From: Nemertoderma westbladi | Lineage: Eukaryota > Animalia > Xenacoelomorpha | NCBI GenBank assembly: GCA_032718475.1 | Contig: JAUCBJ010008561.1 | Span: 1 to 43,745 of the forward strand | DNA: 43,745 nt | Reading direction: 5' to 3' | In this document: piece after piece, positions 12,233 through 43,745 of the stretch | Numbering within the stretch: position 1 is the stretch's first letter | Layout: each line of letters begins with the position of its first letter | Translations under genes and position numbers: made by a program | Notes under the pieces: generated by a model | Database searches by the model: none | What the model was told of the DNA's origin: nothing | What the model saw: the letters and a program-made list of their open reading frames with translations, nothing else

Positions 12233-13714
12233 ATGACGACAGTGGCTACCGTAACTGCGGCCTTGGCTGCAGACGCTGCTTCATGTAGTCATGTCGAATG
12301 TGATGTTCTATCTTACCTGTGGACCTCGCATGTAAAAGGTTATACACGGGACTCTATTGTATCCATAGTTCAATCATGGCATCGTTTCACAGATGCAATG
12401 TTTAAAGAAGCGAAAAATATATTGCTGTCATTGATTCCTGGTAGCGACAGGGAGAAGAGTAAGCAATCCTTTGCAAAGTCGCGCCAATTAGGTGAGTCGT
12501 TTCGCAAGAATACCGTATGCGACATTCTGGACATCTTTGATTATGATGGGTTCATAAATCGAACTGGTAGCCTTCCTCGATTTGTACCCAGTGATTTGGC
12601 TATAATTCCGCCTTTCGCTCTCAGTCACGCCGATACTGCTGTGATGCTTCGTCAATTGAGTGTCATGCAGGACCGTCTAGCAGTAATAGAGGCGGTTTGT
12701 CTGTCTCCGGGTGGATATTCCCCTTCTACAACTTCTTCGCAACAAGGTGCGATAGCTGTGGTTCCGGTACGGGTACCGGTACCGGTAACTTCTTGTACCG
12801 GCAGCTGTAGTCAACAGTCACCCTACATCTGCAAACCTGATGACAGGCCAGTTATTTCAGTTCCTCGTAATAACACCCTTGCTAGCGGAGCTAATCGTAC
12901 CGGTGAACCTAATTCGAACCTAAACTTCAGTGCTGCCCTAGGTCATAACCCTCTGGCACCCGTATTCGTAGCTGCATCACGATCTCCTTCTCCGTTATCT
13001 CAAGCGTCGTCGGGGCCTGCTACTACCGGTAGTGGCACTGGCAGGTCTAGCTTGGTAGCCAACAGCATGTATCCGAATGTTCCACAACAGTGTGATGAAG
13101 AATTCTCAGTTCCATATTCTCAGCGTAAGCGTGCTAAGCGGCAGTTGTGCAACCAGCAGCCGTCGACGGATAACTGGGCATCCAGCAGCGGCAGGCCATC
13201 ATTTGTAAAAGGGTCCTCAACATCTACTAGTTTTCGCACAGTTCAACCTTCACGGAAGCTATTCTTAACAGGATGTCATCCTGACGTTGAAGCTGCTACA
13301 ATTACTGGATTTGTTAAAGATAAGCTCGGGTTTGATGTAATTTGCAAGAAAATTTCGTCAGACGCGGCTTCTGTTCGTTCGTTCCTGATTATTTGTTCTG
13401 ACTCCGAGCGGACATTGCTTTTGAACCCTACTATCTGGCCTCTATATGCAAGAATTAGGGACTTTGAACAGCGCAATCGTATCAATCCGAAATCGGCAAC
13501 GAATTCCGGGTTTTCTGCTAGACCTAACAGCAGCAGCAGAGAAGTTTTGGATCCACAGGTTCCTCAGGGTACCTCTGCCCCTGCCCCTGTACCCAACACT
13601 AACCCTCAAACAGATATACATGACGTCGATGTGAGCTCGGACGTGATGGAGGTTAGCCATAGAGATAGTGACAATTCTGAGCTGTTCCTTAATCTAATTG
13701 ACCCCGCAACGTGA
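12233..13714 (+). CDS. LINE ORF1 protein (N-terminal helical/coiled-coil region, low-complexity linker, C-terminal RRM-like domain)
   Basis: Open frame from 12215 with first ATG at 12233. The motifs LPRFVPSDLAIIPP and KLFLTG...SFLI...NPTIWPLYARIRDF resemble CR1/L2-group ORF1. Lies directly upstream of ORF2. Confidence 0.85.
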   Translation: MTTVATVTAALAADAASCSHVECDVLSYLWTSHVKGYTRDSIVSIVQSWHRFTDAMFKEAKNILLSLIPGSDREKSKQSFAKSRQLGESFRKNTVCDILDIFDYDGFINRTGSLPRFVPSDLAIIPPFALSHADTAVMLRQLSVMQDRLAVIEAVCLSPGGYSPSTTSSQQGAIAVVPVRVPVPVTSCTGSCSQQSPYICKPDDRPVISVPRNNTLASGANRTGEPNSNLNFSAALGHNPLAPVFVAASRSPSPLSQASSGPATTGSGTGRSSLVANSMYPNVPQQCDEEFSVPYSQRKRAKRQLCNQQPSTDNWASSSGRPSFVKGSSTSTSFRTVQPSRKLFLTGCHPDVEAATITGFVKDKLGFDVICKKISSDAASVRSFLIICSDSERTLLLNPTIWPLYARIRDFEQRNRINPKSATNSGFSARPNSSSREVLDPQVPQGTSAPAPVPNTNPQTDIHDVDVSSDVMEVSHRDSDNSELFLNLIDPAT

Positions 13715-13839: not shown

Positions 13840-16713
13840 ATGGCATCTCTAAATAATATAAAAATTGTATCATGGAATTGCAATTCCATAAAACATCCAA
13901 CATCGCAGAGAGTCATACAAGACTATTGCAATGCTGGTTGTGATATTATATTGCTGCAAGAACTTTGTATTCCTAAGCAGGAATTATCTTTGCTGTCCCA
14001 ATTACACCCACAATACTTAGGTAGTGGGGTGTCACCAGTATGCAATTCTGCCGGTATACTGTCTGGGCGTCCTTATGGTGGTGTAGCCATCCTGTATAAC
14101 AATAAAATTTCTCATGCTGTAGAAATTTTATCATTTCATAATGAGCGCTTCATTGGTGCGGTTGTTACACTTAGTAATATGGAAAAACTATTAGTAATTA
14201 ATGTGTACATGCCATATCAGTGTGAAGATAACGAAACATCGTATATAAGTTGTCTCGGTGATATTAAATCTATTTTTGAGGATGTAGCATTTACTTACTT
14301 GTGTGTAATAGGTGACTTCAATGCTCACCCTGACCCTAGCCGGTCATTTCACTTGTTTTTAACAGAATGGTGCAATAATGAAGGTCTACAAATATTTGAT
14401 ATCGGTAATTTACCATCCGACACATTTACGTATATAAGTGATGCTCACTTGACCACCTCATGGCTTGACCATGTTGTTTGCACTCCCTCTACAGGTAGTT
14501 TAATTGAATCCCTTTCAGTGGACTATGTATCTTCCATAAGGGATCACATGCCTATAATTGTTAATTTTTCTGTAACTGTGTGCGTCAGCCCCATTACACA
14601 GCCTGGCCCTGGTCGGCCCAACCCACACCAGCCCACTAAATTGAACTGGGCAGCCACCTCTCCAGAGTCCATTGATACTTTCAAGTATCGTGTGAAAACT
14701 AATCTTGATATGTATATAATTAACAACAATTTATTAAACTGTATGGACACTAAATGTTCGGTTCATAATGACGATATTGATATCTTGTACAATAGTGTTG
14801 TATCAATTTTAACTACTTGTGCTGTAGAATGTATTAAATCGAATCCCACTGTAAATTGTAACTCCACCCAGCGCCACATTCCAGGCTGGAATGACCTTGT
14901 GGAGGAGAAACACAGTGAGGCTCGATTAAAATTCCTGTGTTGGAGATCTTCTGGGTCTCCAAGGCAGGGGCAAATATTTTCTGATTACCTAAGTGCTAAG
15001 GCTAATTTTAAGCGTTCCCTTAGGGCGTGTAAACGTGAAGAGGATAATATCCGTAACGGTAAAATAGCGAATTCACTATTGTCTAGTGGTGCATCATCAA
15101 CCACGTTTTGGTCCAATGTGCACAAATGTTGTTCTAGTACAACTGTATTGCCTAATAAAGTGGGCGATGCTGTTGGTCCCAATCAAATTAGCGATCTGTG
15201 GAAGTCTCATTTTCACACTCTACTGAACTGCGTTAAGGACGATTCCGATAAGGAATTCGTTTCTGAAAAACTTATTGGAACTTCATTTCGTGCAGATTGC
15301 ATTGTTAGTAATAATGAAATTTTTGAAGCTATTAATAGCCTATCTATTGGAAAGGCTGTTGGCCCAGACGGGTTACAAGCTGAGCACTTGATTAATGGCT
15401 GCTGTGTATCGTTACTTGATATTTTGGCTGTGCTTATTAATAGTATTTTTGTTCATGGTTATATGCCATCACTCATGATGGAATCCATTATTGTTCCACT
15501 TATCAAAGATAAAACAGGTGACCATACTTGTAAGGACAATTACAGGGGCATTTCAATTGCAACAGGTTTGAGCAAACTTGTAGAAAGCGTTATTTTAGCG
15601 CGTAGTTTAGCGCTAATGTATACAACTGATAACCAGTTTGGTTTCAAATCCAAACTTGGAACGGAATATTGTATTTACACCCTTAAGGAGATCATAAACT
15701 TTTACCTTTCTAGCAACACTCCAGTATATGTGTGTATGCTTGACGCCAGTAAAGCGTTTGACCGTGTCAACCACTTTACCCTACTCCGTAAACTTATATT
15801 ACGAGGTTTTCCATTATATATAGTACGGCTAATTTTGTTTTGGTATCGATCCCAACTCATGTATGTTATGTGGGGTGGTATTTTTTCTGCCAAATTTATG
15901 GTGACTAATGGAACGAAACAGGGAGGTATACTCTCGCCGTTGCTGTATAATGTATATATTGACGATCTGAGTAAGGAGCTCACAGAGGCTGGTGTTGGTT
16001 GTTATGTCGACTGCATCAGATTGAACCATATATGTTATGCTGATGATATGTGCCTGATTTCGAATTCTATTTTCGGTTTACAACGGTTAATTGACATTGC
16101 CGTTAAATATGCTGATATTAATTCAATTATATTTAACACGAAAAAGTCTAAGTGTTTATACTTCCTCCCGAAAGGATCGTCAGTTATTCGGCGCCCTAAT
16201 GTGTTTCTGTATGGTGTTGCTATTGAAATTGTAAATAAATTCAATTATTTAGGCCATATTTTACATTGTACAATGGATGATGACTATGATATTCTTAACC
16301 AAACTTGTAAGTTATATTCTAGAGCTAATTTTATTATTAGGAAATTTAGCGGCTGTGCAAATAATGTAAAAGTGCAATTGTTCCGTGCATTCTGTACGCC
16401 GATTTATTGTAATGCCTTATGGGCTAGGCGTAATTACTCAGATCGTATCCACAGTAAACTTAAAGTAGCCTATAATAATTGTGCAAGGCGATTATTTGGG
16501 TTACCAAGAGTTACTGATGGACAGACATCGAGTATTTCACTAGCGCTCGGTATGTTGAATATACCATTATTTATACATATCAGATATAGATCAGTAATCA
16601 GTCTATTTGATCGTATAAACAAGATAGATAATACACTATTGCAAGCATTAAATACGGCAGTAGTTAAGATATCACGAATACGTGAAATGAAAGACCCTGT
16701 ATTTCTAACCTAA
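13840..16713 (+). CDS. LINE ORF2: APE endonuclease + reverse transcriptase
   Basis: APE motifs SWNCN, LLQE, GGVAIL, GDFN, WLDH, DHMP; RT motifs QFGF, LDASKAFDRV, GTKQGGILSPLLY, YADD, YLG. ATG at 13840. Confidence 0.97.
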   Translation: MASLNNIKIVSWNCNSIKHPTSQRVIQDYCNAGCDIILLQELCIPKQELSLLSQLHPQYLGSGVSPVCNSAGILSGRPYGGVAILYNNKISHAVEILSFHNERFIGAVVTLSNMEKLLVINVYMPYQCEDNETSYISCLGDIKSIFEDVAFTYLCVIGDFNAHPDPSRSFHLFLTEWCNNEGLQIFDIGNLPSDTFTYISDAHLTTSWLDHVVCTPSTGSLIESLSVDYVSSIRDHMPIIVNFSVTVCVSPITQPGPGRPNPHQPTKLNWAATSPESIDTFKYRVKTNLDMYIINNNLLNCMDTKCSVHNDDIDILYNSVVSILTTCAVECIKSNPTVNCNSTQRHIPGWNDLVEEKHSEARLKFLCWRSSGSPRQGQIFSDYLSAKANFKRSLRACKREEDNIRNGKIANSLLSSGASSTTFWSNVHKCCSSTTVLPNKVGDAVGPNQISDLWKSHFHTLLNCVKDDSDKEFVSEKLIGTSFRADCIVSNNEIFEAINSLSIGKAVGPDGLQAEHLINGCCVSLLDILAVLINSIFVHGYMPSLMMESIIVPLIKDKTGDHTCKDNYRGISIATGLSKLVESVILARSLALMYTTDNQFGFKSKLGTEYCIYTLKEIINFYLSSNTPVYVCMLDASKAFDRVNHFTLLRKLILRGFPLYIVRLILFWYRSQLMYVMWGGIFSAKFMVTNGTKQGGILSPLLYNVYIDDLSKELTEAGVGCYVDCIRLNHICYADDMCLISNSIFGLQRLIDIAVKYADINSIIFNTKKSKCLYFLPKGSSVIRRPNVFLYGVAIEIVNKFNYLGHILHCTMDDDYDILNQTCKLYSRANFIIRKFSGCANNVKVQLFRAFCTPIYCNALWARRNYSDRIHSKLKVAYNNCARRLFGLPRVTDGQTSSISLALGMLNIPLFIHIRYRSVISLFDRINKIDNTLLQALNTAVVKISRIREMKDPVFLT

Positions 16714-16875: not shown

Positions 16876-16904
16876 AATAAAGAATATAATAATAATAATA
16901 ATAA
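16876..16904 (+). terminator. LINE polyadenylation-like signal and (TAA)6 tail
   Basis: AATAAA at 16876-16881; TAA x6 at 16887-16904. Confidence 0.8.
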
Positions 16905-17784
16905 CATCCTGTTATGGTTCTAAAGTCTACACTCAAACATACATCCTACAATCATACACCCTGTTATGGTTCTAAAGTCTACACTCAAACATACATCCTA
17001 TAATCTACAATCATACACCCTGTTATGGTTCTAAATTCTACACTCAAACATACATCCTACAATCATTCACCCTGTTATGGTTCTAAAGTCTACACTCAAA
17101 CATACATCCTACAATCATACATCCTGTTATGGTTCTAAAGTCTACACTCAAACATACTTCCTACAATCTACAATCATACACCCTGTTATGGTTCTAAAGT
17201 CTACACTCAAACATACATCCTACAATCTACAATCATACATCCTGTTATGGTTCTAAAGTCTACACTCAAACATACATCCTACAATCTACAATCATACATC
17301 CTGTTATGGTTCTAAAGTCTACACTCAAACATACATCCTACAATCATACATCCTGTTATGGTTCTAAAGTCTACACTCAAACATACATCCTACAATCATA
17401 CACCCTGTTATGGTTCTAAAGTCTACACTCAAACATACATCCTACAATCATACACCCTGTTATGGTTCTAAAGTCTACACTCAAACATACATCCTATAAT
17501 CTACAATCATACACCCTGTTATGGTTCTAAATTCTACACTCAAACATACATCCTACAATCATTCACCCTGTTATGGTTCTAAAGTCTACACTCAAACATA
17601 CATCCTACAATCATACATCCTGTTATGGTTCTAAAGTCTACACTCAAACATACTTCCTACAATCTACAATCATACATCCTGTTATGGTTCTAAAGTCTAC
17701 ACTCAAACATACATCCTACAATCATACACCCTGTTATGGTTCTAAAGTCTACACTCAAACATACATCCTACAATCATACATCCT
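16905..17784. repeat. 52-bp satellite, distal block
   Basis: Same unit, with the same diagnostic variants (aaattct, attcacc, cctataatc) as 10750-12060. Confidence 0.99.
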
Positions 17785-19452: not shown

Positions 19453-19573
19453 TTACTTAATTATTTCCTCTAAGAGGCATAGTTTATCAAGTGGTCTTTT
19501 GTAAACTCCCAAGGAGGTTTTTACTTCAACTGATCTAATTAACCCCACATGATCAGGGTATACTTGCGTTATA
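19453..19573 (-). pseudogene. C-terminal remnant of BEL/Pao Pol (DUF5641-like)
   Basis: Manual translation ITQVYPDHVGLIRSVEVKTSLGVYKRPLDKLCLLEEIIK* matches the VRSV.VKT..G...RP..KL motif that ends BEL Pol. Confidence 0.8.
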
Positions 19574-21465
19574 TACTATTTATTTCATTGTCACTTACAG
19601 ATAGGATGTACAATACTGTACCGTAGGCCACTTTAGTGGCGTCTGGAAAAATATGTAACTGGTAGTTGATTGGACCCGAATGGACGGGGATGTACATCCT
19701 AGGTATTTCCAGTTCGCTGAACAAAGGGAGTTGATCTCGCCACTTCATCCATTGACGTGTTGTATCTGGTGGGAGTGGGGTATCACAGTCTAATTCCATT
19801 GACCACATTTTTGCTATAACTAATCGACCTGCTATGATTAAAGGTAAGATAAAGTTAATGGGATCGTACGATCGTTTGCGAACATAACCCTTCACGACAT
19901 AATCGTCTATTTTTTGTTGATAAAGGGCACGGATTTGTGGCTGACCATGTAGCTGACGGATTAAATATGCGAAACGAGATTTTGCCATATTATAATTGAC
20001 ACCACTTGATACTACAGTGGGGTCACCTGCAATGGAGATAGAAGATCTATCATTAGGGTTCATGGATGTAATACCCGATAGTGCAGAATTAGGAGCATTT
20101 CTATCGAAATATACTGGACCATTGTGTCCCCCCATGGCATATTGTACATGATTTGAATTAGGAGCATTTACTGCAGACTGACCAACAGAGATTGAACTAG
20201 CAGTTACAGATGCTACAGGATTACATAAAAATCCAGGAGTCTCACTGTATTGATACTGTAGGCCAGTGGTACTATATGGGAAATATTGTCCCTCATCATA
20301 TAAGTTTTGTCCTCCCATGGCAAATGATGGGACGTGAGATATATTATGGGTATTGTATATCGCAGAAGAGGCAAACTTGGGGCGCCTCTCTTGTGCAGAT
20401 TGACCCGGAACATTGATGGGACATGATGGGACACTTTGACCTATGGGGTGGGAAGGGTGGGGGAATTGTCCCCCTATGGGGTATGTTGAAACATATATAG
20501 ATGGACATGTAAGGCTATTTACATCAAGAGATGTAAATGCCACAGGCTCCTCTTGACTATATTGTTCCCGGCTGGTAGTAAGATAGGATGGCACATATTG
20601 TCCTCCAGAAGTATAGGATGAATAAATGCATTGTCCGGCCGAGGAACTTCTAGGATATCTCTGAGAATACTGACTTAAGGAAGATGCAGTATTAAAAGGC
20701 GATGTTGGGTGTATAAAGAGACCAGTTGTACAAAAATTACCTAGTGGGATAATTTCAGAAACTCTACTATTAATTAGCGCACTAGTGGGTCTTATAGGAG
20801 ACGTAAGAGAAAAAATTGGAAGTTGAGATGACACTACTGACGTTGTTTCTACAGTGACAGGGTAGGAATCAGATTGACTAGACTGCAGATTATTTTGTGC
20901 TGATTCATAGGAATCTGAGGCACTCACATTAACAGGTAGGCCCGTGGTTGCTATGGCAACAGGGTCGACTGGAGACTCTGATTGGTTCCTTGTATTAACA
21001 GTCACATTATTGTTAAGATTACTTTCAGTTTGTACACCAATTGGTACGTCATACGTGGGAGATCTTTTTGGTGATTGTAATAGCGCAGGAGCTACATAAT
21101 CTGCTTCTGCTTCTCCAAATTCAGGTGATTTCAACTCTAAAGCTTCTTCAAGTGCTGCAAGTGCAAGAGCATCGCGTAGGCCACGTTCCTTTGCCAAGCG
21201 AGTAATTTCTTTCTGTTGCCGCTCTGATTTTTGTAATATCAATGTGTCAGCCTGATCTGCCTGAGCAGCTGCTCCTGACTGCTCGAGCTGTAGCAGGAGT
21301 AATTTTCGCTTGACTTTGGCACGATGAACTCTAACTGATGCACTCGTCGAGGCTCGAGAATGTGCTGTAGAACCAGAGTGAGTTGAAATTATTCGATTAC
21401 GTTTGAGCTCGCCAACTTGCAATTGTTCATGAGATGATACATACTGTGGAACATCTGAAGACACA
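19569..21465 (-). pseudogene. Mosaic BEL/Pao gag-pol ORF lacking Gag core, protease, RT and integrase
   Basis: Ser-rich/coiled-coil start, then the pre-RT motif NYNMAKSRF...Y...IDDYVVKGY joined directly to the Pao RNase H/A17 motifs YDPI...W...IPR...LHIFPDATKVAYG. The first ~34 aa of the listed ORF are TIR read-through. Confidence 0.8.
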
Positions 21466-21896
21466 AGTAGTAGGGTCTTCCTCCTCTCTGTGACAGTTGG
21501 ACCTAACTGACACCCATTGGGTGTCATATGACACCCAATTATCACCCTATGGGTGTCATTGGGTGTCATTGGCGCCAGACTGTCTGGGTGACACCTCCCA
21601 ATTAGGCTAATTAGACCCTAATTGACAGGTGTCATCAATTAATTAGTATAATTAAACCCTAACAGGTGTCATATGACTCCTAATTAGGGTTTAATTGATT
21701 ATCCTAATTAATCAGACTGATTAGCGCCCTGACACACAATGGGTCATCAGTGATGTCCAACTGTCGCAGAGAAGGGGGAAGAGGGTGTCATAAGTGACAC
21801 CGCAGCTCTTTTATTCATTAATACCTATTTATTTATATTTAATTTTAATTAATTATTTGTACTTTATTTTACTTTATTTATTCATTTGTACTTTAT
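21466..21896 (+). repeat. Left terminal inverted repeat
   Basis: Reverse complement of 27783-28213; no mismatch noticed by eye. Confidence 0.95.
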
Positions 21897-22499
21897 TTTA
21901 AATTAATTAATTGTTTATATTACTTTTACTTTATACATTGATTTCTATTTTTAGATTAATTAGTTTTTATATTACCAACGAGATCACTATGACATAATAT
22001 CTATTTTTAACTTTATAATGGCTATGGTATACGGCTCCCTACTGGCAACTATCAACTACGTTCATCGGCGGGGGGCCCCTCCTCTGCCATCATTATTCAT
22101 TAACTAGATACAACAGGCAGTGAATCTACACGTATACCCCAAGGCAAATATAAATGAGCGATCCCGTCTGTTAGCAGTCCCTTCGATGACTCACTAATAA
22201 TCCCATCGCGGCCTTGACTACAGCAAATCCCTATGTCGCCCAAGGCTAATGCTCTAGCGGCCCTCCATTGTTCCCACTATAGCCGACGTCGCTTTGTCCC
22301 TTTCCTATATCCAGGCAGCCCCTATCATAACAATGAAGCGCCTCTAATCACGCATTCCTCTCTACTAATCCCTTTCCTTTGCACCAGACCTGCTTCTGTT
22401 ATACAGCCAACTCAATATAATTAGTCAAGATGCTTACAAGAGTTTTCTAATAGATTCATCAACACGAGAAGTTGCCCTGGTAACCGCTTATGCATGAAC

Positions 22500-22620
22500 A
22501 GCCAATCAGCGGGCTTCATTTCTGCTGCTGCGCTCTGATTGGCTCATTTAAGAGACAAGGGCCTCCCCTACTAACCGAATTACTATTTAATAAGTCCCCA
22601 CCAATTTATTAGATCATTAT
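22500..22620 (+). promoter_or_regulatory. Putative Pol II promoter: two opposed CCAAT boxes, TATA-like box, Inr
   Basis: AGCCAATCAG at 22500, CTGATTGGCT at 22535, TATTTAATAA at 22584, and TCATT at 22614 about 30 bp after the TATA. Confidence 0.5.
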
Positions 22621-22741
22621 TTCAATTGCAAGTTACGATTAACATCATTTACCATTATTTTGTTTTCGAATTTAATATTATTTATTTAAGAATATTTATT
22701 TGTTATCATCAGTCAACAACCCACTTGTAGAGTTGTATTAT

Positions 22742-23552
22742 TGTCATTTCGCCGCGTTTTCGCTCATCGTCGACAACAAACTTTCCGCGTATCCACCGCG
22801 TAATATTTCAATATTTCTAATTTCCGATACCATTCCGTTCTATCGGTTGATAAACTCTCTCGTCGTCCACGTCAACCAACTTCCTCATCGCCACCGAACT
22901 TCCAAACTTCTTCTTTCCGTGAATATTTACTAACACCGTAAGTAAAATCTGCCTTCCATCTAGCTATACTTTCGACGCCGCTAGCAAACAATTTACATTT
23001 AATGTCTACCGGTACAACAGTATTGCAGTAGGCTCATTATTAATTACTGTCAGACTGCGGTGGTACCGATAGCCTAAACCGTGATCGAAGCATTCGATCA
23101 ATAGGCTTACATCCGCCTATCTGCTTACAGTATTTTTTATCTTTTTACAAATAATCATCTTATTTTTCTAGTATCATTTCGCCGTGCTATTGCTCATCGT
23201 CGACAACAAACTTTCCGCATATCCGCCGCGTAATATTCCATTATTTCTAATTTCCGATATCATTCCGTTCTATCGATTAATAAACTCTCTCGTCGTCCAC
23301 GTCAACCAACTTCTTCGCGAACATCCAAACTTCTTCTTTCCGTGAATATTTACTAATACCGTAAGTAAAATCTGCCTTCCACCATCTGACGGTACTATCG
23401 ATGCCGCTAGCAAACAATTTACATTTATTATCTACCAGTACAACAGTATTGCAGTAGGCTCACTATTAATTACTGTCAGACTGCGGTGGTACCGATAGCC
23501 TAAACCATGATCGAAGCATTCGCTCATTAGGCCTAAATGTGTCTATCTGCTT
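22742..23552 (+). repeat. ~430-bp diverged tandem duplication of an apparent non-coding exon-intron unit
   Basis: 22742-23171 aligns with 23172 onward; GTAAGT donors at 22938 and 23361; homologous ...TATTTTTCTAG acceptors ending at 23171 and 24065. Confidence 0.8.
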
Positions 23553-24072
23553 GTCTACCCAACTACCGGTACCGCATCATTCGAGTTAGCCTAGTGCCAC
23601 TGTAGTAACGATATAGACCCTACTGAACAACAATGAATACTGCAGTTTTCACTATATATCCTACTGACTAACTGAGATCTCACACAGCGATTAGCTAAGC
23701 CTATCGTTGATTTCTATTGGTTAACGCTACCGGTACGTCTGACTTGTAGCAGACTATATCACTAGCACTACTGCACTGACTGACTGCTGTTTATAGACCC
23801 TCTTTCCACGAATAATAACTGCCATCGCTATTGTGTCTTGGTTATCGCCACTATCTGACCGCTGGTACACTAACACTACCACACTAGACACTGCCGACTG
23901 TCTGCTTTATGTTTCACTGACTGATTGCTACAATACAGCAATAGGCCTAACTATACAAACACAGTATTGTTGCCTAGTAACCGATTAATATCCACTGTTT
24001 TACTTTATTTTTAGCACGTATACAGTATTTTTTATTTTTTATAAATAATCAACGTATTTTTCTAGATTCAAG

Positions 24073-24909
24073 ATGCCAAGATCAACAAATAAAGTTAGCT
24101 GTCCCATCTGCGACAAAGAGATGCGGAGTGATAATCTAAAATCCCATATTAAAACTCATTTCGTGCAATATCGATGCGACTGCTGTCCGACTTGGTCTTC
24201 GGAAAAGAAGACGCTGGTTGGCCATCTTGCTTCGTGTCCTCAGGGGGGAACAGGATTTAGTTACGTAAACGAGCCAGCCGATTGCCGCTGCGGGGATTCG
24301 CTCACCCTGTCATCCTTTTCTGAGCATGAATGCTACACTCGACTTTTTTCGCGGAAACGCAAAACTCCGACTACCTCCCACTCATCCCCCATCAACTCTA
24401 CTCCAGAACAAGTCGGCGGCGGCGGCTCCAATAATGAACCTTCAACTTCGCGAGATTCTATTTCCCCAAACAATCCATTTCAACCCCCCTCCAACGGAAG
24501 CGCACACGGACGACTGTTTACCTATAACAACGACCTCACAGAAACAAGACTCGATGCTGAATTAACATTAAACGAAAATTTTCCACACATTCAAGAACAC
24601 GTTAGTAGCCATTTACGTAGTGCCATGGGAACTTTTTTAAGAGTCTGGCTTACAATCAACATCGTAATGGAGCGTGAAACGAGCGAGGGATTTCAAATTG
24701 AATCTTTCTGTTTTAAATCTAGCGGTAACAATAATCAAATTCTAAATAATAGCGACTTTAATAACTGGTTTTCTAGCGCCGTCAATCGTATCGATCAACT
24801 GTTAAGCGTGTTTCTCTGCCTCGGCTCGGGTTGGCGCATAATAGCCATCGAGCGAATAACTATTGAGATTGCATGTTCCCAACGCAACCCCTATTTAACG
24901 GGTCAATAG
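24073..24909 (+). CDS. Zinc-finger protein fused to a domain resembling the N-terminal (GSGW) region of Polinton protein-primed PolB
   Basis: CPICDKEMRSDNLKSHIKTH (C2H2), further C/H clusters, basic RKRK, then LRVWLTINIVMER...FKS...IDQLLSVFLCLGSGWRIIAIERITIEI. Confidence 0.75.
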   Translation: MPRSTNKVSCPICDKEMRSDNLKSHIKTHFVQYRCDCCPTWSSEKKTLVGHLASCPQGGTGFSYVNEPADCRCGDSLTLSSFSEHECYTRLFSRKRKTPTTSHSSPINSTPEQVGGGGSNNEPSTSRDSISPNNPFQPPSNGSAHGRLFTYNNDLTETRLDAELTLNENFPHIQEHVSSHLRSAMGTFLRVWLTINIVMERETSEGFQIESFCFKSSGNNNQILNNSDFNNWFSSAVNRIDQLLSVFLCLGSGWRIIAIERITIEIACSQRNPYLTGQ

Positions 24910-24929
24910 GATTTAATTTTAATTTCTAG

Positions 24930-25445
24930 AATAAGAAATTGAGCATCAAAATAGAATTAACCAATAAACAGTTTACCGGAAAAAACATTGCCAAATTTGA
25001 ACTAGAGAAAATTTCACAGCAAATTACAGGTCAAAGATGCTTAAAACCAAACATGTTTATCTACAAAGGTGACGATTCAACTATAATGCTATTTCCCAGC
25101 GGCGCAGTAACAATTGTAGGCCTGTGCAATAATTTAGCTAGTGAATTGCTTTATTTAAAACAAACTATCGGTTTGCAATTACAAAATTTGAAACTTAATA
25201 CCGAAACACGAACTATTATTTTTCCAAGTGTTAATTTTAAATTATTAATGAAAAAATGTGGACATCATACAATTAATAATAAAGCAATATTTATTAGCTA
25301 TACCCCTGAATTATTTTGCGCGATTAGAATATATATAGGACGTGCATATTTCAGTGTATTTCATAGTAATAAAATTGTTTCCATGTGTCCTGCCGGTGAA
25401 TTCCCCGGATCATTATCTATTTTACAAACTTTATTATTAAATTAG
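24930..25445 (+). CDS. Divergent TATA-binding-protein-like ORF, probably a spliced 3' exon
   Basis: TIMLFPSGAVTIVG, SYTPELFCAI and FSVFHSNKIV mirror the TBP repeat motifs LIFxSGKxVxTG and SYEPELFPGL. The frame opens right after TTTCTAG (24929) with no ATG until codon ~42. Confidence 0.7.
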   Translation, partial: NKKLSIKIELTNKQFTGKNIAKFELEKISQQITGQRCLKPNMFIYKGDDSTIMLFPSGAVTIVGLCNNLASELLYLKQTIGLQLQNLKLNTETRTIIFPSVNFKLLMKKCGHHTINNKAIFISYTPELFCAIRIYIGRAYFSVFHSNKIVSMCPAGEFPGSLSILQTLLLN

Positions 25446-25487
25446 TTTATTTACTATGGTATACATGAAAGTTTACTATATTATTTA

Positions 25488-26010
25488 TTTTGTGTTGGTT
25501 TTTATTTTTCCGTGAGTAGGGTTTGAATCCATGACCATCCGTGTTACCTACTTTTTATAATTGCATTAGTAGGACTCGAACCCTGGTTTAACTTATTTTG
25601 TGTTGGTTTTATAATGGTCGCGAGTAGGGATTGAACCCATGACCTTCTGTTTATTTTCCATAAAACGGGATATGAATAGGGATCGAACCTGTGAGCATAT
25701 GTTTTTCCTAATTTATGTTTAGTTTAGGTACTCTAGTTATTTTATGTTTAACTTATTTTGTGTTGGTTGTATATTGGTCGCGAGTAGGGATTGAACCTAT
25801 GGCCTCCTGTTTATTTTCCATAAAACGGGATATGACTAGGGATCGAACATGTGACCACCTGTTTATCCTATTTTATGTTTAGTTTAGGTACTCTAGTTAT
25901 TCTATGTTTAACTTATTTTGTGTTGGTTTTATATTGGTCGCGGAGTAGGGATTGAACCCGTGACCATCTGTTTATCCTATTTTGTGTTTAGTTTAGTTAC
26001 TCTATGTTAA
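25488..26010 (-). repeat. Degenerate tandem repeats (~160 bp period) carrying about seven Pol III B-box/T-arm motifs
   Basis: Plus-strand GGGATTGAACC, GGGATCGAACC and GGACTCGAACC read GGTTCRAnnCC on the minus strand, near 25520, 25572, 25628, 25680, 25788, 25840 and 25949. Confidence 0.75.
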
Positions 26011-26370
26011 AGTGAATTTTCACATTATATTTATGTTAAATGATAAATTTATGCTACAATTATTATTTATATTATAAAAACAGAAATATTCGAGTTATAT
26101 TGCATTATATATTTTTCATTGAAGTGGAATACTTTAGATGTTGTTTGCGAGGGATATTTGAATGGTGAGTATAACTATCCTTGAGAGCTAGTGCGACGTT
26201 ATCTCACTATGGATGGGCTTTACCACTGTACTCGCACCTGAAAGGTTAGCTGTGGTGTATTAGTTACGCTTAGCATTAGAGAATCCGTCCGTATCACCGA
26301 CTAGACAGCGAATCTGGCAACCCAGTTTTTGTTCTAGAGGCTTCAGTTTGTTGTAAATCAGGGCGTTAGG

Positions 26371-27053
26371 CACTGAGGCATAGACTATGACTCACTGAGG
26401 CATAGACTATGCCTCACTGAGGCATAGACTATGCCTCACTGGGGCACTGAGGCATAGACTATGACTCACTGAGGCATAGACTATGCCTCACTGAGGCACT
26501 GAGGCATAGACTATGACTCACTGAGGCACTGAGGCATAGAATGTGACTCACTGAGGCATAGACTATGACTCACTGAGGCATAGACTATGCCTCAGTGAGG
26601 CATAGACTATGACTCACTGAGGCATAGGCTATGCCTCAGTGAGGCATAGACTATGACTCACTGAGGCATAGACTATGTCTCACTGAGGCATAGACTATGC
26701 CTCACTGCCTCAGTGAGGCATAGACTATGCCTCACTGAGGCACTGAGGCATAGTCTATGCCTCACTGAGGCATAGTCTATGCCTCACTGAGGCATAGACT
26801 ATGACTCACTGAGGCATAGTCTATGCCTCACTGAGGCATAGATCTATGCCTCAGTGAGGCATAGACTATGCCTCACTGAGGCACTGAGGCATAGACTATG
26901 CCTCACTGAGGCACTGAGGCATAGACTATGCCTCACTGAGGCATAGTCTATGCCTCAGTGAGGCAGTGAGTCATAGTCTATGCCTCACTGAGGCATAGTC
27001 TATGCCTCAGTGAGGCATAGTCTATGCCTCAGTGCCTCAGTGAGGCATAGTCT
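26371..27053. repeat. 22-bp self-complementary minisatellite
   Basis: Unit CACTGAGGCATAGACTATGCCT, built from overlapping palindromes TATGCCTCA-c-TGAGGCATA and TGAGGCATAG-a-CTATGCCTCA. Confidence 0.95.
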
Positions 27054-27116
27054 GTGTCAGGTCTTAAATGTGAGTCTTACAAATTCGAACGTCAACGAAC
27101 AAATTCGAAGGTTACT

Positions 27117-27200
27117 GTTCCACCTTGGTGTAGTGGTTGCGTTGAATTCACATCTCCCGTATGTCATGGGTTCGATCCCCGCATGAACCAGGGCAGTTTT
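27117..27200 (+). ncRNA. tRNA-like Pol III unit (pseudo-tRNA or SINE head)
   Basis: A box TGGTGTAGTGG, B box GGTTCGATCCC, GTTC/GAAC end pairing, CCA at 27188-27190 and TTTT at 27197. The anticodon arm pairs poorly. Confidence 0.55.
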
Positions 27201-27274
27201 CGTTTGGTTAGCAATAGGCCTAACGTTGCAAAATGCTGTATTATTGCCTAGTAACCAATTCATGGCTACCGTAT

Positions 27275-27570
27275 GGTTTTCACTTTAAGACATTTCGCCC
27301 TCTAGCGGCAGACTGGGGAACTTCAGACTACTCTGTGACCCTGCAAAAGATATAGCCTATGCCGTAATAGATGCCGATTGGGGGGTCAAATTAAGTAATA
27401 ATATATCTAAATAAGCCTCAAACATCTTGCCTCATGGCTCGCCCCTTAGAACTCTTAAGCAATATAACTTCATGGTTTTGCGGATTGTAAATAACAAAGC
27501 TAGAGAAGATGTTAATTTTTAAACAATACGCCCTCTAGCGGCAGACTATGGAACTGCAGACGGCTGGACA
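27275..27570. repeat. Two copies of the Helitron-internal ~146-bp repeat family inside the TIR element
   Basis: GACATTTCGCCCTCTAGCGGCAGACTGGGGAACT...AAGATATAGCCTATGC and GATTGTAAATAACAAAG...GAAGATGTTAA match 33700-34800. Confidence 0.85.
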
Positions 27571-27782
27571 TAGATAAGAGTAATTAGTAATCAGAGCTGT
27601 CACGAGAGGGGGGCGGGGCGCTTGGATACAACTATTATTAATAAGCTGTTGCTTGGTTAAAGCTAATTGGGGGTCAAAGGTCAAAGGTCAACGATAAAGC
27701 TGTCTGGATATAGATAAGAGTAATTAGTTACCAGTAAGGGAGCTGTATACCCATAAAGTACAAATGAATAATTAATATAAAT

Positions 27783-28213
27783 ATAAAGTACAAATGAATA
27801 AATAAAGTAAAATAAAGTACAAATAATTAATTAAAATTAAATATAAATAAATAGGTATTAATGAATAAAAGAGCTGCGGTGTCACTTATGACACCCTCTT
27901 CCCCCTTCTCTGCGACAGTTGGACATCACTGATGACCCATTGTGTGTCAGGGCGCTAATCAGTCTGATTAATTAGGATAATCAATTAAACCCTAATTAGG
28001 AGTCATATGACACCTGTTAGGGTTTAATTATACTAATTAATTGATGACACCTGTCAATTAGGGTCTAATTAGCCTAATTGGGAGGTGTCACCCAGACAGT
28101 CTGGCGCCAATGACACCCAATGACACCCATAGGGTGATAATTGGGTGTCATATGACACCCAATGGGTGTCAGTTAGGTCCAACTGTCACAGAGAGGAGGA
28201 AGACCCTACTACT
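27783..28213 (-). repeat. Right terminal inverted repeat
   Basis: Reverse complement of 21466-21896; ends CCCTACTACT. Confidence 0.95.
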
Positions 28214-28215
28214 CA

Positions 28216-29976
28216 TACCCTTTCGTTGATACTCAGCTGATTGCTCCCTGGGCAGAAGGTCGAGGTTTCTTCCGCACTATGTATGCTAATACGCCTAGCA
28301 ACATTACCAAGGTGCAACGAACTTCCATTGGACATCTTGCCTTTCAGGAATACGGATGGAATTTCAAAGTCGGAAATCCCATTAACTATCAACAAGTATA
28401 CGGAGATCATTATTCTCGATTGTACTTTGATGGACCATTAACCGCACCTGGCGCCGTGTATAGCTTCATGAGTGTTCCACTCCGTCCCTCCTTAGCTATA
28501 TACACGATCTTTGAAAACACCGCACTTGCCGGTTGGCTAGCCGATGTGTGCAGTCGTACTATACACGCCCATCCATTAATACTTGGGACCAAACTCGCTA
28601 AGCTAGATGAACATAATAAATTCATCCGTTTCGAATGTTTCCGGCGATTTTTAACCCCGTTCCGCAACGTGGATAGCCAATTTAAAGACCGCGCTTTGAC
28701 CAAGCTCAGCCTAAGAGACTCAGCTGCAGAGAAGTTGGATAGCGCTGGATTCGCCGTTTTCCAAGAGATTTGTATATCGAACTTACACTCCTCTGTTATA
28801 CAAAGACCTCGAATCCCCACAGGTTATTCTGTCGTGGAAATTCAGACAATAGGTCCACCTGAAGAGACAGACGCGCCCACTTCAGCTATGCACTTGGAAG
28901 ACGAACCAATATGTCTAGAATCTGAAGAGATTCAGCCTATCGCGCCCCGGACCAGCGACAACGATTACATCATAGAATGGTATCAAGGTCCACAGTGTCT
29001 CATTGCGTACGATTATCGACATGCCAACTATGTTTCTAGGCAACGTTGTCGGTTATGCGCATCGAGAGACCACGATACGCCCATGGACACCAACGTCCGC
29101 TGTTCCTATTTCCAAGAACAACCGACTATGGAAATTTATTGCGCATATTGCAGACTCAATAACTTGCATATCTTTGCGGTTTGCCCTCAATTTATGACTC
29201 AATGTCACCATTGTCAACTAAAGGGACATGCCAGTTTCGATTGCCCTTTTAATCACGATTTGGAAAGCGTAGATGAAATGATCACACTACGTTACATCAG
29301 AGCTTGGGAAGCGAACGCTGATTTACATTGTGATTCGCGCCATCGCTATTATCCCGGACGCGCTTACGAAGGAGTTTATGCGTTCCATCCTTATCTATTC
29401 GCTTCGGTTGAACAGAAATCACGCATATCAAGTTACGAGCTACTGAAGCGCGTCGGAGAATGTATTTCAACCAAATTCGTACGCAAATTTCTCAGGAGTG
29501 TTAATCCTAGCGACCTTCATTCCTATAACTTAATCAATTATATCCGTCAGGATCCGGACTATGGAGACTTGTTTATTAACTCACACCCCGAGTTACAGGA
29601 AGTATATCGACGGCCTTACGAATACCGAGCCCGCGAACGCGAGTTGGAAAGAACCATTAAACCCCGGAGGTTTCTAACTGCCTATGGTCCACCCATGGCC
29701 CTCGTTCAGACCACTCGTAAAGGACCCGTAAGAGCGGCTGTCTTAAAACGAGCTCTCAAAGCCGTTAGACCCCTCTCCCCGGACGTTGATGTCAATCAAC
29801 CCGGTACTTCGACTGGCGGATACACCGACCATAATCCTACACCCTCTGATGCAATCATATTGCACCCTTCACCCAGGAGTTATAGCCCTCCTTGTAAAGT
29901 GGCTCGCCCCAAAGAGAAAAAGACTCTGGCTAGCTTTAAAAAACTGCGTAAACGCCGTCCGCGCAAGAAAGACTAA
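28216..29976 (+). CDS. Accessory Cys/His-rich zinc-knuckle protein with basic C-terminus; 5'-truncated
   Basis: Frame is open back to the TIR junction (first ATG 28279). CHHCQLKGHASFDC is CX2CX4HX4C; also CAYCRLNNLHIFAVC and CRLCASRDH; ends KKLRKRRPRKKD. The protein is conserved with the second copy despite many third-position changes. Confidence 0.85.
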   Translation, partial: YPFVDTQLIAPWAEGRGFFRTMYANTPSNITKVQRTSIGHLAFQEYGWNFKVGNPINYQQVYGDHYSRLYFDGPLTAPGAVYSFMSVPLRPSLAIYTIFENTALAGWLADVCSRTIHAHPLILGTKLAKLDEHNKFIRFECFRRFLTPFRNVDSQFKDRALTKLSLRDSAAEKLDSAGFAVFQEICISNLHSSVIQRPRIPTGYSVVEIQTIGPPEETDAPTSAMHLEDEPICLESEEIQPIAPRTSDNDYIIEWYQGPQCLIAYDYRHANYVSRQRCRLCASRDHDTPMDTNVRCSYFQEQPTMEIYCAYCRLNNLHIFAVCPQFMTQCHHCQLKGHASFDCPFNHDLESVDEMITLRYIRAWEANADLHCDSRHRYYPGRAYEGVYAFHPYLFASVEQKSRISSYELLKRVGECISTKFVRKFLRSVNPSDLHSYNLINYIRQDPDYGDLFINSHPELQEVYRRPYEYRARERELERTIKPRRFLTAYGPPMALVQTTRKGPVRAAVLKRALKAVRPLSPDVDVNQPGTSTGGYTDHNPTPSDAIILHPSPRSYSPPCKVARPKEKKTLASFKKLRKRRPRKKD

Positions 29977-31311: not shown

Positions 31312-32640
31312 CCCAAGTATAAGCAAAAAAGCATTAGAAACAACGAAATGGGAGAAGGATTTCACTTGAGACATTTCACCCTCTAGCGGCAGACTGAGAA
31401 ATTGCAGATTGGTCAGAGTTTTCCACAAACACGCAGTCTATGGTGTAGTAGACCTCTGACAAGTATAAGCCTAAAAGCATTAGAAACAACGAAACGGGAT
31501 AAGGTTTTCACTTTCAGACATTTCGCCCCCTAGCGGCCGAATGGAGAACTGCAGTTTGTTCGGCGTCTTACCTAGACACACACCCTATGTTGTACAACAC
31601 ATCTGGCAAGTGTCAGCCTGAAATCATATTATTAACGAAATGGGATAAGGTTTTCACTTTCAGACATTTGGCCCCCAAGCGGTTGGATAAATGCAGACTG
31701 GTTCTAGCTCCTCCCCAAACACACAGTCTATGGTATAGTAGACCTCTGCCAAGTATCAGCAAAAAAGCATTATAAACAATGAAATGCATAAAGGTTTTCA
31801 CTTTCAGACATTGCGCCCCCTAGCGGCAGACAGAGCTATTGCAGATTGGTCTTAGTTCTCCACAAACACGCAGTCTTTGATGTAGTAAACCTCCGACAAG
31901 TATCAGCCTAAAAACATTATAAACATCAAAATGGGATAAGGTTTTCACGTTCAGACATTTCGCCCCCCAGCGGCCGAATAGAGAACTGCAGGTTGTTCGG
32001 CGTCCTCTCCAGACACACACCCTATGGTGTAATACACATCTGCCATGTGTCAGCCTAAAAGCATTATTAATAACGAAATGGGATAAGGTTTTCACTTTCA
32101 GACATTTGGCCCCCTAGCGGTAGACTGGAGAGATGCAGACTGGTTTTAGCTCCTCCCCAAACAGGCAGTCTTGGTGTAGTAGACCTCTGCCAAGTATCAG
32201 CAAAAAAGCAGTATAAACAACGAAATGGGTGAAGGTTTTCACTTTCAGACATTGCGCCTCCTACCGGCAGACAGAGGAATTTCAGATTATTCAGAGTTCT
32301 CTACAAACACGCAGTCTATGGTGTAGTCGACTTCTGCCAAGAATCAGCAAAAAAGCATTATAAACAACGAAATGGGATAAGGTTTTCACTTTCAGATATT
32401 TCTCCCCCTAGCGGCAGACTGGGGAATTGCAGATTGCTCAGCATCCTCCGAAAACACACAGCCTATGGTATAGTAGACCTCTGCCACAGATCAGCTAAAA
32501 GGCATTAATAATAACGAAATGGGAGAAGGTTTTCCGTTTCTGACATTTCGCCCCCTAGCGGCAGACTGGAGAACTGCAGATTGATCAGTGTCTTCCAAAA
32601 CACACAGTCTATGGTCAGGAACGTATCTGCAAAGTATCAT
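31312..32640. repeat. ~146-bp tandem repeat array (about 9 units, trimeric ~437-bp substructure)
   Basis: TTTTCACTTTCAGACATTTCGCCCCCTAGCGGCAGA recurs at about 31372, 31519, 31664, 31808, 31955, 32102, 32249, 32396 and 32543. Confidence 0.9.
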
Positions 32641-33121: not shown

Positions 33122-35616
33122 CTAGAAAGCCCGTGGCCCTTCGGGCCACGTCTTTCTAGTTCACAAGCCTATTCACCATTCCAAACATTAGATTAATTAA
33201 TTAACTTGACTTAACAAAACGTCACATGGTTGAGTGTTCTCTCAAACAAAGCCTAAAAGCATTTTTAATAACTAAATGTGAGAATGTTTTCACTTTTCAG
33301 ACATTTCGCACCCTCTACCAGTATACTGGAGAACTGCAGACTGGTTAGCATCCGCCCCAAACACACAGCCTATGGTGTAGTATACGTTTCCCAAGTATAA
33401 AAAAAAGGGCCACAGCTTTCTAGTGCACGTGCAGATGATATATGAATATGTGTGGGAGATTCGAGAACTGCATACGGAATAGACACCATCATTAAATAAA
33501 ACACCACCCCCATAAGATATAACTGTCAAGTTTCAACTTTAGGCAGATTGTAAATAACAAAATTTCCAGAAAATGATCACTTTCAGATCCACCCTCTACC
33601 TGCGGACTGGTGAAATGCAGACGGCGCTGCAGTTTGGTAAAGATGGGGTTTATGGTGAAGTAAAATAATGCCTGCCTTTCAAGTTTCAGCTTAAACAGAT
33701 TGTAAATAACAAAATTGGTGTAGATGTTCACATTCAGACATTTCACCCTCTAGCGGTAGACTGAAGAACTGTGGACGACTCTGGGACTCCGTAAAGATAC
33801 AGAATATGCTGTAGTAGATTCCTGCCAAGTTCCAGCTCAATAGGATTAAAAAGAACCAAATGGGATGAGGTGTTCACTATCAGATATGTCGCCCTCTAGC
33901 GGCAGATGGGGGGACTGTATACAACTCTGTGACTCCGTAAAGGTACAGCCTATGCTGTAGTAGATGCCTACCAAGTTTCAGTCTAAACCGTTAGTAAATA
34001 ACAAAGTTGGAGAAGATGTTAACTTTCAGACATTTCACCCTCTAGCGGTAGACTGGGGAAGTGAATAGGATTCTGCAACCCCGTAAAGATACAGCCTATG
34101 ATGTAGTAGATACCAACCAAGTTTCAGCTCAAAATGATTAAAAAGAACCAAATGGGATGAGGTTTTCACTATCAGACAATTCGCCCTCTAGCGGCTGACT
34201 GTGGAACTGTAGACGACTCTACTACTCCGCAAAGATATAGCCTATGCTATAGTAGATGCCTACCAAGTTTCAGTCTAAAAGGATTGTAAATAACAAAGTT
34301 GGAGGAGATGTTAACTTTCATACATTTCACCCTCTAGCGGCAGACGCGGGTAATGTAGACAACTCTGCGCGACTCAGTAAAGATATAGCCTATGCTGTAG
34401 TAGATGCCTACCAAGTTCAGTCTAAATGGATTATAAATAACAAAGTTGGAGAAGATGTTAACTTTCAGACATTTCGCCCTCTAGCGGTAGACTGGGGAAT
34501 TGTAGACGACTCTGCGACTCAGTAAAGATACAGCCTATGCTGTAGTAGATGCCTACCAAGTTTCAGTCTAAACGGATTGTAAATAACAAAGTTGGAGAAG
34601 ATGTTAACTCTCAGACATTTAGCCCTCTAACGGTAGACTGGGGAACTGTGGACAACTCAGTGACTCAGGAAATATACAGCCTATGCTGCAGTATATAGCT
34701 ACCAAGTTTCAGCTCAAAAGCATTAAAAACAACCCAATGAGATCAGGTTTTCACTATCGGACAATTCGCCCTCTAGCGGCAGATGGGGAAACTTCAGACG
34801 GCTCTGAGTATTACGTTGCAACGAGTTAGGGCAAGACCTATCTAACGAGCTATAGTAAGCGAGATTTCATCGAGATTAGATGTATAATATTAGATAAAAT
34901 AATAATACAGTAAGTATAGGCCTACAGAAATAATTATTTTACTTTTAATATTCATAACAGTAAAACAAAAATGTTATAAACCTCTCCTTCCATGCAGCCA
35001 ATGATTGAGAAAGCAGAATTACACTTGAGCAGTTCGCAACAGACAACCCAAACCCACCCCAATCAACACTACAGCCTGGCTTGCTCCTTATCTGTGCCCA
35101 GCTAGCTGCGATTTCAATAATTACCTTACGTTGCTATGATACAGAAAAAAATCCTTCCCTATTCACTACAGCACTAAGAATAGGCCAATTCGATCGTGCT
35201 TGGCGAATATGACATATTTATACACTATTTGGTTTTTAATCAATAAATAATCATACATATTTATATTAAACACTCGAATAAAATAAAAACTTTGTGAGAA
35301 TGGGACACGGCGAATCTACCCATGTTAATTTTATACCAGGTGGGATAAATGTTAGCCCTCTAAATAATTAATTACCGATAGAAGAACCGAAATAATTCGA
35401 TAAATTTCGCCCGAAAATCACGAAAATCGCCCTCTAGCGGCAGACGGGCGAACTTCAGACGACTCTGAGTATTACGTTGCAACGAGTTAGAGCGAGACCT
35501 TTCTAACGAGCTATAGCAAGCGAGATTTCATCGAGATGGGTTCGATTGTATAGCCGATGACAAACACACAGACAGACAGACTGACTGACAGACAATCGAT
35601 ATTTATATATATTAGA
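33122..35616 (-). mobile_element. Non-autonomous Helitron copy A (composite)
   Basis: 5' TCTAATATATATAAAT plus TGTC repeats at 35616; 3' hairpin CGTGGCCC-GAA-GGGCCACG followed by CTAG ending at 33122. Confidence 0.75.
33520..34810. repeat. ~146-bp tandem repeat array, second subfamily
   Basis: AACTTTCAGACATTTCGCCCTCTAGCGG recurs at about 33738, 33885, 34030, 34177, 34322, 34469, 34616 and 34761. Confidence 0.9.
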
Positions 35617-43100: not shown

Positions 43101-43745
43101 CAACCGCCGAAGCGGGAGTCGCCAACATAGTAGCGGGCTGACGCGGGACGACGGGAGACAAATTATTGATTTCTCTCTCTGCTATCTGGACAGGGGTGTT
43201 TGCATGGGCTGTTCCACCGGGTACAGGCAGTGTAGTGCTATGTAAAGGGAATTTAGAGTTAAGCTCTGGAAGTGTAGGGGTCTCTAGCACAGAAGTGACT
43301 TTGGGAATTACAGGCCTAATTATTTCAGGTTCATCGACTATAGTAGGGAGTCTTTTGACCTGGATAAATTGTTCTATAGGTTCTGCACTACCTAAATCTG
43401 TGCTAGTTAGCTGTCTTTTAACAGCTGGGGGCAAATCAGGCAATTTACGACGGTAATATGTTTTTCTACGCCTACTTAGATGAGATCTATCTCCTCCGCC
43501 TTCAGGGTCGGTAGTATCGCCTTCCTCCGATGATGTGTACCCCTGGCGCTTGGGAGTAGATTTTCTCATCATCTGCATTTGATTAGCAGTAAACTGTTTA
43601 TTTATACTGTCTTGTGTCTCTTGCAGATTCTCCAACTCCAGTTGGGTAGTCTGCTCAGATGCTCTCCTTTCTGCTTCTGCCACTGCCTTTGCCACCTTTC
43701 TTTCTGCTTCTGCTTCTGCCGCCGCTGCTTTCTTTCTGCTTCTGC
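40110..43745 (-). CDS. gag: BEL/Pao Gag-protease polyprotein, split by a 1-bp frameshift near 42652; RT and integrase absent
   Basis: KFNGD..KWLPF...LSNGEKLRFL; CALCDGPHRLSAC, CYNCLRRGHQRRTC, CAKCGAKHHSLLH; ALLDSGS; ILIG; AVRTRVGW..TGP; then QWRH....KPADIASRG...W..G. The frame is open to the window end. Confidence 0.9.
42361..42895. repeat. 267/268-bp tandem duplication inside gag
   Basis: 42361-42627 and 42628-42895 are near identical, with TCA microhomology at the junction; the second copy has one extra C. Confidence 0.95.

Follow-up and report, generated by a model that had tools for sequence, protein, structure and literature searches.

Can an element with Polinton-type ends, and with none of the Polinton enzymes, supply the protein that would prime its own replication? 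The question is raised by a ~6.7 kb element (positions 21466-28213) on contig JAUCBJ010008561.1 of Nemertoderma westbladi, within a window of 43,745 bp, which is the whole stretch of DNA analyzed here. We consider it, on balance, to be probably a non-autonomous Polinton satellite, which would provide its own predicted primer and borrow polymerase and integrase from an inferred helper. Our starting points are features observed directly, i.e., the ends of the element, its gene content, the diversity of a multi-copy family, and an excess of synonymous change in the first of its two open reading frames (ORFs). The four main features are as follows:

21466-21896, plus strand: left terminal inverted repeat (TIR) with an AGTAGT tip; the outer 317 bp form a long fold-back rich in TGACAC/GTGTCA, and the inner part is AT-rich
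24073-24909, plus strand: ORF1, 278 aa, with C2H2-type zinc fingers (~aa 10-90), a low-complexity linker, and a predicted PRD1-like terminal protein (TP) domain (aa 144-270)
24930-25445, plus strand: ORF2, a weakly TBP-like frame of 171 aa behind an acceptor-like AG (24928-24929), with its first in-frame ATG at 25053
27783-28213, minus strand: right TIR with an ACTACT end; 431 bp identical to the left TIR

A predicted terminal protein between Polinton-type ends

The two TIRs are exactly identical over 431 bp (or ~445 bp at 99.6% identity with a gap), begin with AGTAGT and end with ACTACT, and enclose an interior of 5,886 bp. Their tips, (AGT)2//(ACT)2, are of the Polinton type, for which (AG)3//(CT)3 tips also count; the motif found here is the commonest end motif in vertebrate Mavericks, where it is tied to jumping-back priming (PMC8097293). 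The outer 317 bp of the TIR fold back on themselves (z = -16 against shuffles). A sequence-only reading of this DNA had noted the identical TIRs and their tips, and had suggested recent replication; we agree that the identical TIRs mark a young copy. Another superfamily of TIR elements, which that reading had named as an alternative, was considered and ruled out by the Polinton tips, the predicted TP fold, and the lack of any transposase frame.

Within the interior, 29 stop-to-stop frames of at least 45 aa are present, and only two of them, ORF1 and ORF2, exceed 100 aa, in line with the two convincing ORFs in ~5.9 kb claimed earlier. The standard Polinton genes are missing, as that reading had also stated: of a full pPolB (TP, vOTU, exonuclease, and palm) the TP domain alone is found, as ORF1 stops at aa 278, and no further frame above 100 aa could encode an rve integrase, packaging ATPase, protease, or capsid protein, the 27 short frames lying outside the Pfam scan. 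Nor does the interior contain a frame for the pPolB-S1H replication protein that marks transpovirons.

In ORF1, Pfam returned weak C2H2 matches and nothing else. A single-sequence AlphaFold2 prediction of aa 141-278 (pLDDT 63, with three of the five models near 60) gave a four-stranded sheet with two helices in the order strand-helix-strand-strand-helix-strand, the topology looked for in a TP. The motif GSGW (aa 251-254) lies between helix 2 and strand 4 of this model, with the codon of Ser252 at 24826-24828. In PRD1-like TPs and in domain D1 of Polinton pPolB, the linking Ser or Tyr occupies this same loop, adjacent to Gly or Pro (10.1101/2024.03.18.585575). The C-terminal domain of ORF1 is accordingly predicted to have a TP fold with Ser252 at the linking position, which fits the putative primer protein of the sequence-only reading. 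Further, the stop codon of ORF1 falls nine codons after the last strand of the model and coincides with the TP/vOTU boundary of Polinton pPolB, the proposed cleavage site with vOTU as the cutter (10.1101/2024.03.18.585575).

Structural comparisons of the model point in the same direction. With Foldseek against BFVD, a C2H2 protein (560 aa) from Drosophila-associated adintovirus 2 came first (E 4e-6, TMq 0.66) and was the sole one with E <= 0.001 among at least 500 matches, followed at ranks 2-4 by a MELD-virus PolB (1.9e-3), a herpesvirus protein, and a densovirus DNA polymerase (1.5e-2). When the model was compared by VIA-align with 48,161 representative PDB chains, the ten best matches were Y-family polymerases without exception, each aligned at its C-terminal part (Z 7.6-9.7, rmsd 2.9-4.9, 101-113 residues aligned), and one of these entries is titled little finger domain. 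Because the PRD1-like TP fold is proposed to derive from the Y-family little finger (Krupovic et al., 10.1101/2024.03.18.585575), these matches count for a TP fold. In the ESM Atlas, the TP domain met only unnamed, mostly eukaryote clusters (best 0.91). A PDB sequence search gave nothing relevant, and none of the four window proteins searched had a match in NCBIfam. Two metagenome matches to ORF1 were dropped, being short and confined to the zinc fingers.

ORF2 is weakly TBP-like in sequence: 29 of its 30 ESM Atlas neighbors carry TBP (up to 0.95), at a recognition value of 1833 that lies under the 2300 mark. The TBP-like gene claimed earlier stands in this weak form. The fold prediction of ORF2 (pLDDT 31) gave no usable saddle fold, and no sequence relative was found among 46 candidates or in PDB sequences. 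A TBP-like gene is listed in the map of a MELD virus (10.1101/697771), from which we consider it likely that ORF2 was inherited from a parent Polinton.

Copies, variation, and the insertion site

DNA of the element was found in five sequencing runs from three studies of one organism, four of which hold more than half of its words, and was not found in two other organisms of one of these studies. The data on copies and variants below come from the assembled contigs of four runs (X1-X4). Contigs that cover the TP domain are as little as ~80% identical to the window copy. In X4, the depth of single ORF2 contigs reaches 1,843 and 2,034, compared with 200 in the left flank and 22-27 in the thinnest contigs; in X1, the ORF2 contigs have 72-118. 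Contig depth is no copy number, and we infer several to tens of copies, depending on the sample. In all four runs the depth is even across the TP domain, its stop codon, and the TBP-like frame. The many diverged copies in one organism support a multi-copy family.

The changes among these copies fall mostly in places that leave the ORF1 protein unaltered. Variants are shown for 40 of 156 places, 34 of them in ORF1 and six in ORF2. Among the variants listed, no stop was found in ORF1, and 22 of its 34 changes are synonymous where 22-29% would be expected (p 1e-7 to 2e-5; rough omega 0.2); the excess is seen both in the TP domain (10/15) and in the fingers (12/19). Taken over all 40 places, 25 changes are synonymous in frame, compared with 6 and 5 in the shifted frames. 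This test is not a true dN/dS and pools all aligning contigs over subfamilies. A 6-bp insertion present in all four runs is in frame and lies within the linker, and frameshifts in ORF1 are confined, among the contigs listed, to single contigs of low depth. The element is a multi-copy family with excess synonymous change in ORF1; no significant excess was seen in ORF2.

Further patterns were seen among the contigs. One contig class in all four runs shares the spacer and the TBP exon and cannot be aligned upstream of 24907. The depth of the TIR and subterminal region is several-fold above that of the ORFs in X2-X4, while the X1 TIR is not deeper than the interior, which hints that other elements share these ends. 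In X1, X3, and X4, contigs connect the inner TIR (21825) directly with 27484 and represent a sibling variant whose right end is shorter. The predicted intron upstream of ORF1 (23937-23989) and the right subterminal region (27210-27263) share a direct repeat of 54 bp (81%), possibly an element-specific site.

The 6-bp target-site duplication (TSD) anticipated for a Polinton was not found at this locus, where GACACA on the left faces CATACC on the right. The left flank (19569-21465, minus strand) is a BEL/Pao frame, and contigs of X2, X3, and X4 reach 21466 and then continue into 768-780 bases of other sequence. On the right lies an unrelated repeat of very high abundance, its frame interrupted by the TIR; in 25 X2 contigs this repeat is preceded by other sequence. 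As the flanks are two different repeats, two loci adjoin the element. At two positions the letter of the window is a minority one (0-3% of depth at 21649 and 0-11% at 21862), yet is present in both TIRs, as expected if one template gave both ends. Since both TIRs share letters that are rare elsewhere, we favor one insertion with an adjacent deletion, or capture at a break, over recombination between two copies; either of these events, the deletion following the insertion, is the likely cause of the missing TSD. Among the contigs listed none bridges either window junction, and the joins between element and flanks may be assembly joins.

Regulatory features and neighboring repeats

Besides the two ORFs, the interior contains the following features:

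22500-22600, plus strand: RNA polymerase II (Pol II) promoter-like stretch, judged by sequence, with CCAAT at 22502, ATTGG at 22538, and a TATA-like word at 22547
22744-23552, plus strand: 426-bp tandem duplication, predicted non-coding exon and intron start, with GTAAGT donors at 22938 and 23361 and an acceptor AG at 23170-23171
25519-25958, minus strand: B-box array in a 160-bp repeat, with five exact and two one-mismatch boxes; no upstream A-box seen
26371-27050, no strand assigned: palindromic array with a 22-bp unit; 23 core units, lying in both orientations, and eight TGACTC words
27110-27199, plus strand: degenerate tRNA-derived RNA polymerase III head with an A-box-like word, an exact B box at 27169, and a T4 run; likely similar to a short interspersed nuclear element
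27272-27565, plus strand: two pieces (27272-27375 and 27482-27565) of a 147-bp host repeat with a CTCF-like word

The words at 22502-22547 are taken here as Pol II promoter motifs. The next acceptor after the 426-bp duplication lies at 24064-24065, and the leader is predicted to be a cis-spliced 5' untranslated region (UTR) with introns. Inspection by eye gave no sign of a trans-spliced leader. Of the promoter with a spliced leader proposed earlier, the CCAAT boxes, the TATA-like word, the GTAAGT donors, and the acceptors are present, and the splicing itself is read from the sequence.

With GGTTCRANYCC as the assumed B-box consensus, six exact matches occur in the element, none in the remaining 37 kb of the window, and a mean of 0.02 in shuffles; five of the six lie in the array at 25519-25958. 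Both this array and the palindromic one had been seen in the sequence-only reading, and both were recovered. The TGACTC words of the palindromic array are presumably AP-1-like. Its unit had no match in metagenomes, and the 39 Rfam matches, all inside this array and all under gathering scores, were set aside as chance hairpins. The tRNA-like gene fared less well: ARAGORN at default settings finds none at 27110-27199, a tRNA-Phe-like call appears only at the relaxed threshold of 80, and the stretch shows no folding beyond that of shuffles (z -0.6 to -0.9).

The repeats that surround the element are of several kinds. To its left, the BEL/Pao copy at 19569-21465 (minus strand) is internally deleted (Peptidase_A17, E 2e-18) and cut by the left TIR; the further 768-780 bases seen in X2-X4 are absent here. 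A second BEL/Pao gag-protease region (DUF1759) lies at 40110-43578 (minus strand), with a 268-bp tandem duplication at 42358-42895. To the right of the element, a repeat with an orphan ORF occurs in two copies of opposite orientation (28216-29976, plus strand, and 37039-38122, minus strand; ~83-89% alike). The open frame, of 586 aa, has its 5' end cut by the TIR, shows two CCHC-like knuckles by eye, and has no Pfam or NCBIfam match; the repeat is very abundant (summed depth of 150,000-600,000 in X2-X4). Each copy extends to a region of 147-bp arrays (31313-32615 and 33673-34806), which have (GACA)n tracts nearby and the same unit as the two pieces inside the element. We take the word in this unit to be CTCF-like, and the arrays presumably resemble non-autonomous Helentron-type elements. 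Further upstream, a 52-bp satellite array of 223 copies (248-12065 and 16904-17784) is interrupted by a long interspersed nuclear element, with its ORF1 at 12233-13714 and an intact-looking endonuclease-reverse transcriptase ORF2 at 13840-16713.

Proposed mechanism, competing readings, and known systems

How could such an element replicate? We tentatively propose, at slightly less than an even chance, an enzyme-free satellite in which a pre-cut TP primes and caps the ends on the polymerase of a helper, and a TBP-like factor captures transcription; all steps that involve the helper are inferred. In the satellite reading judged probable above, Pol II would transcribe the element and, after splicing of the 5' UTR, the transcript would give a zinc finger-TP protein that already ends where vOTU would cut the TP from pPolB. 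The zinc fingers or the TP would bind the ends of the element, the helper pPolB would link the first nucleotide to Ser252, and copying would start with a jump back at the AGT repeats. The TIRs would stay identical through strand displacement and pairing as a panhandle. The integrase of the helper would insert the copy, and its capsids may transfer it from cell to cell, which would account for selection on a trans-acting gene. In what is the weakest step, the TBP-like product, the B boxes, and the palindromic array might tune transcription of the satellite or of the helper.

Several results weigh against a satellite of this kind. No helper Polinton was found, the whole host genome lying outside the search, and no TSD marks the locus. 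The TP model is a single-sequence one with a mean pLDDT of 63, and ORF1 has no sequence relative among 151 candidates of near length or 153 longer ones, and none in viral contigs; the TP domain has none among 1.84 billion representatives. In PRD1 and adenoviruses, the stand-alone TP bears helical extensions that are proposed as polymerase docks (10.1101/2024.03.18.585575), whereas the TP of ORF1 ends nine residues past strand 4 and has a low-complexity linker before strand 1; the lack of these extensions speaks against its use in trans. For ORF2, the Pfam TBP match (PF00352, E 0.0026, 18 bits) is under the cut-off of 22.9, synonymous variants are three of six (not significant), and there is no obvious start codon; the ATG at 25053 would truncate the first TBP repeat, which implies an upstream coding exon. 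The variant test itself covers 40 of 156 places with subfamilies pooled and contigs of a full-length parent possibly included. Finally, X1 and X3 contain a minor class of contigs that agree with the end of the TP domain and then depart into other sequence; this class could be a parent or a sibling.

The same structural and selection data would also fit a defective-interfering or repressor element, in which a truncated zinc finger-TP protein binds Polinton ends or polymerase without priming and damps the helper. The TBP-like protein would contribute to this damping, as would the B-box and palindrome arrays, and the helper, with its own TP, would still move the element; the KP derivative of Drosophila P elements offers an analogy. 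The TP of ORF1 may thus be an interfering protein rather than a primer, a role consistent with the lack of the docking extensions of true stand-alone TPs, and selection at the level of the host or cell would account for a conserved trans-acting gene in a multi-copy family. However, an intact linking loop with Ser-Gly and a stop at the proposed TP/vOTU boundary are features that a decoy need not retain, and no result here demonstrates repression; we regard this reading as rather unlikely.

We give a similarly low probability to a plain internal deletion of a full Polinton that already contained the cassette (the TBP gene and possibly an adenovirus-like split TP). The synonymous excess would then reflect past selection in the parent, with the short copies carried passively, like a large miniature inverted-repeat transposable element. 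Mobile polB-lacking Polintons are reported from insects (10.1101/2025.02.07.637071), and the TBP-like gene of the MELD-virus map (10.1101/697771) would suit such a parent; some contigs continue beyond the TP end, frameshifted contigs exist, and the deep TIR and subterminal regions of X2-X4 suggest that the ends may be common to other elements. On the other hand, most of the depth is uniform from the TP across the stop to the TBP-like frame, no third frame in the interior exceeds 100 aa, and the 6-bp insertion of all four runs keeps the frame within the linker, while the frameshifts listed are single low-depth contigs. The greater depth of the ends than of the ORF interior in three of the four runs could also point to a multipartite protein-primed virus or plasmid pair of which the element is one segment, with the TP and transcription factor here and the polymerase and capsid on a partner with the same TIRs. 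This is very improbable: no second segment was seen, the X1 TIR is no deeper than the interior, and the AGT tips and chromosomal position suit an ordinary Polinton derivative.

The element can be compared with the known systems that it resembles. Like Polintons/Mavericks (adintoviruses, Polintoviricetes; PMC8097293, PMC8502044, 10.1101/2024.03.18.585575), the element has long TIRs, (AGT)2//(ACT)2 tips, and a predicted D1-type PRD1-like TP, which is structurally nearest to an adintovirus C2H2 protein. It differs in its size (6.7 kb compared with ~17 kb), in the lack of vOTU, polymerase, integrase, ATPase, protease, and capsid frames, in a TP that is a stand-alone ORF, in predicted leader introns, and in the absence of a TSD at this locus. 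It stands outside the autonomous Polintons and likely works like their non-autonomous derivative. The polB-lacking Polintons of Pieris and other insects are also non-autonomous, TIR-bounded, and apparently mobile, but the variants described are at least 12 kb and contain other Polinton proteins and transposable element cargo, whereas here only the primer domain and a TBP-like frame are found (10.1101/2025.02.07.637071). In the literature searched, from which Repbase, most subscription papers, and supplements were excluded, we found no Polinton derivative with a lone TP, and the parts searched of PMC3014272, 10.1101/2024.01.15.575659, PMC11296320, and 10.64898/2026.10.13.758929 contain no TP-only case.

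That the N-terminal domain of pPolB serves as a primer, cut at the TP/vOTU boundary, is a claim from structure prediction (10.1101/2024.03.18.585575). A natural element with exactly this domain as a free, conserved ORF, and with the enzymes lost, would support this boundary independently, from genetic evidence, and would offer a small substrate on which to test it. If our reading is correct, animal Polintons have parasites of their own, which bears on the control of Polinton copy number. Transpovirons offer a parallel in being small, capsid-less, linear, Polinton-related, and helper-dependent (as would be the case here), but they encode pPolB-S1H and are parasites of the giant viruses of protists, while this element has no enzyme and resides in an animal genome (10.1101/2024.03.18.585575). 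The TPs of adenoviruses and PRD1 share with ORF1 a separate TP gene, the same predicted fold, and the position of the linking residue; they belong to autonomous genomes and have helical extensions, where the TP of ORF1 has zinc fingers instead and no polymerase in cis. On the satellite reading, the element would bear on the origin of split TP genes such as that of adenoviruses. It would be the protein-primed equivalent of a satellite virus, and a present-day parallel to the separation of TP and polymerase behind adenoviruses.

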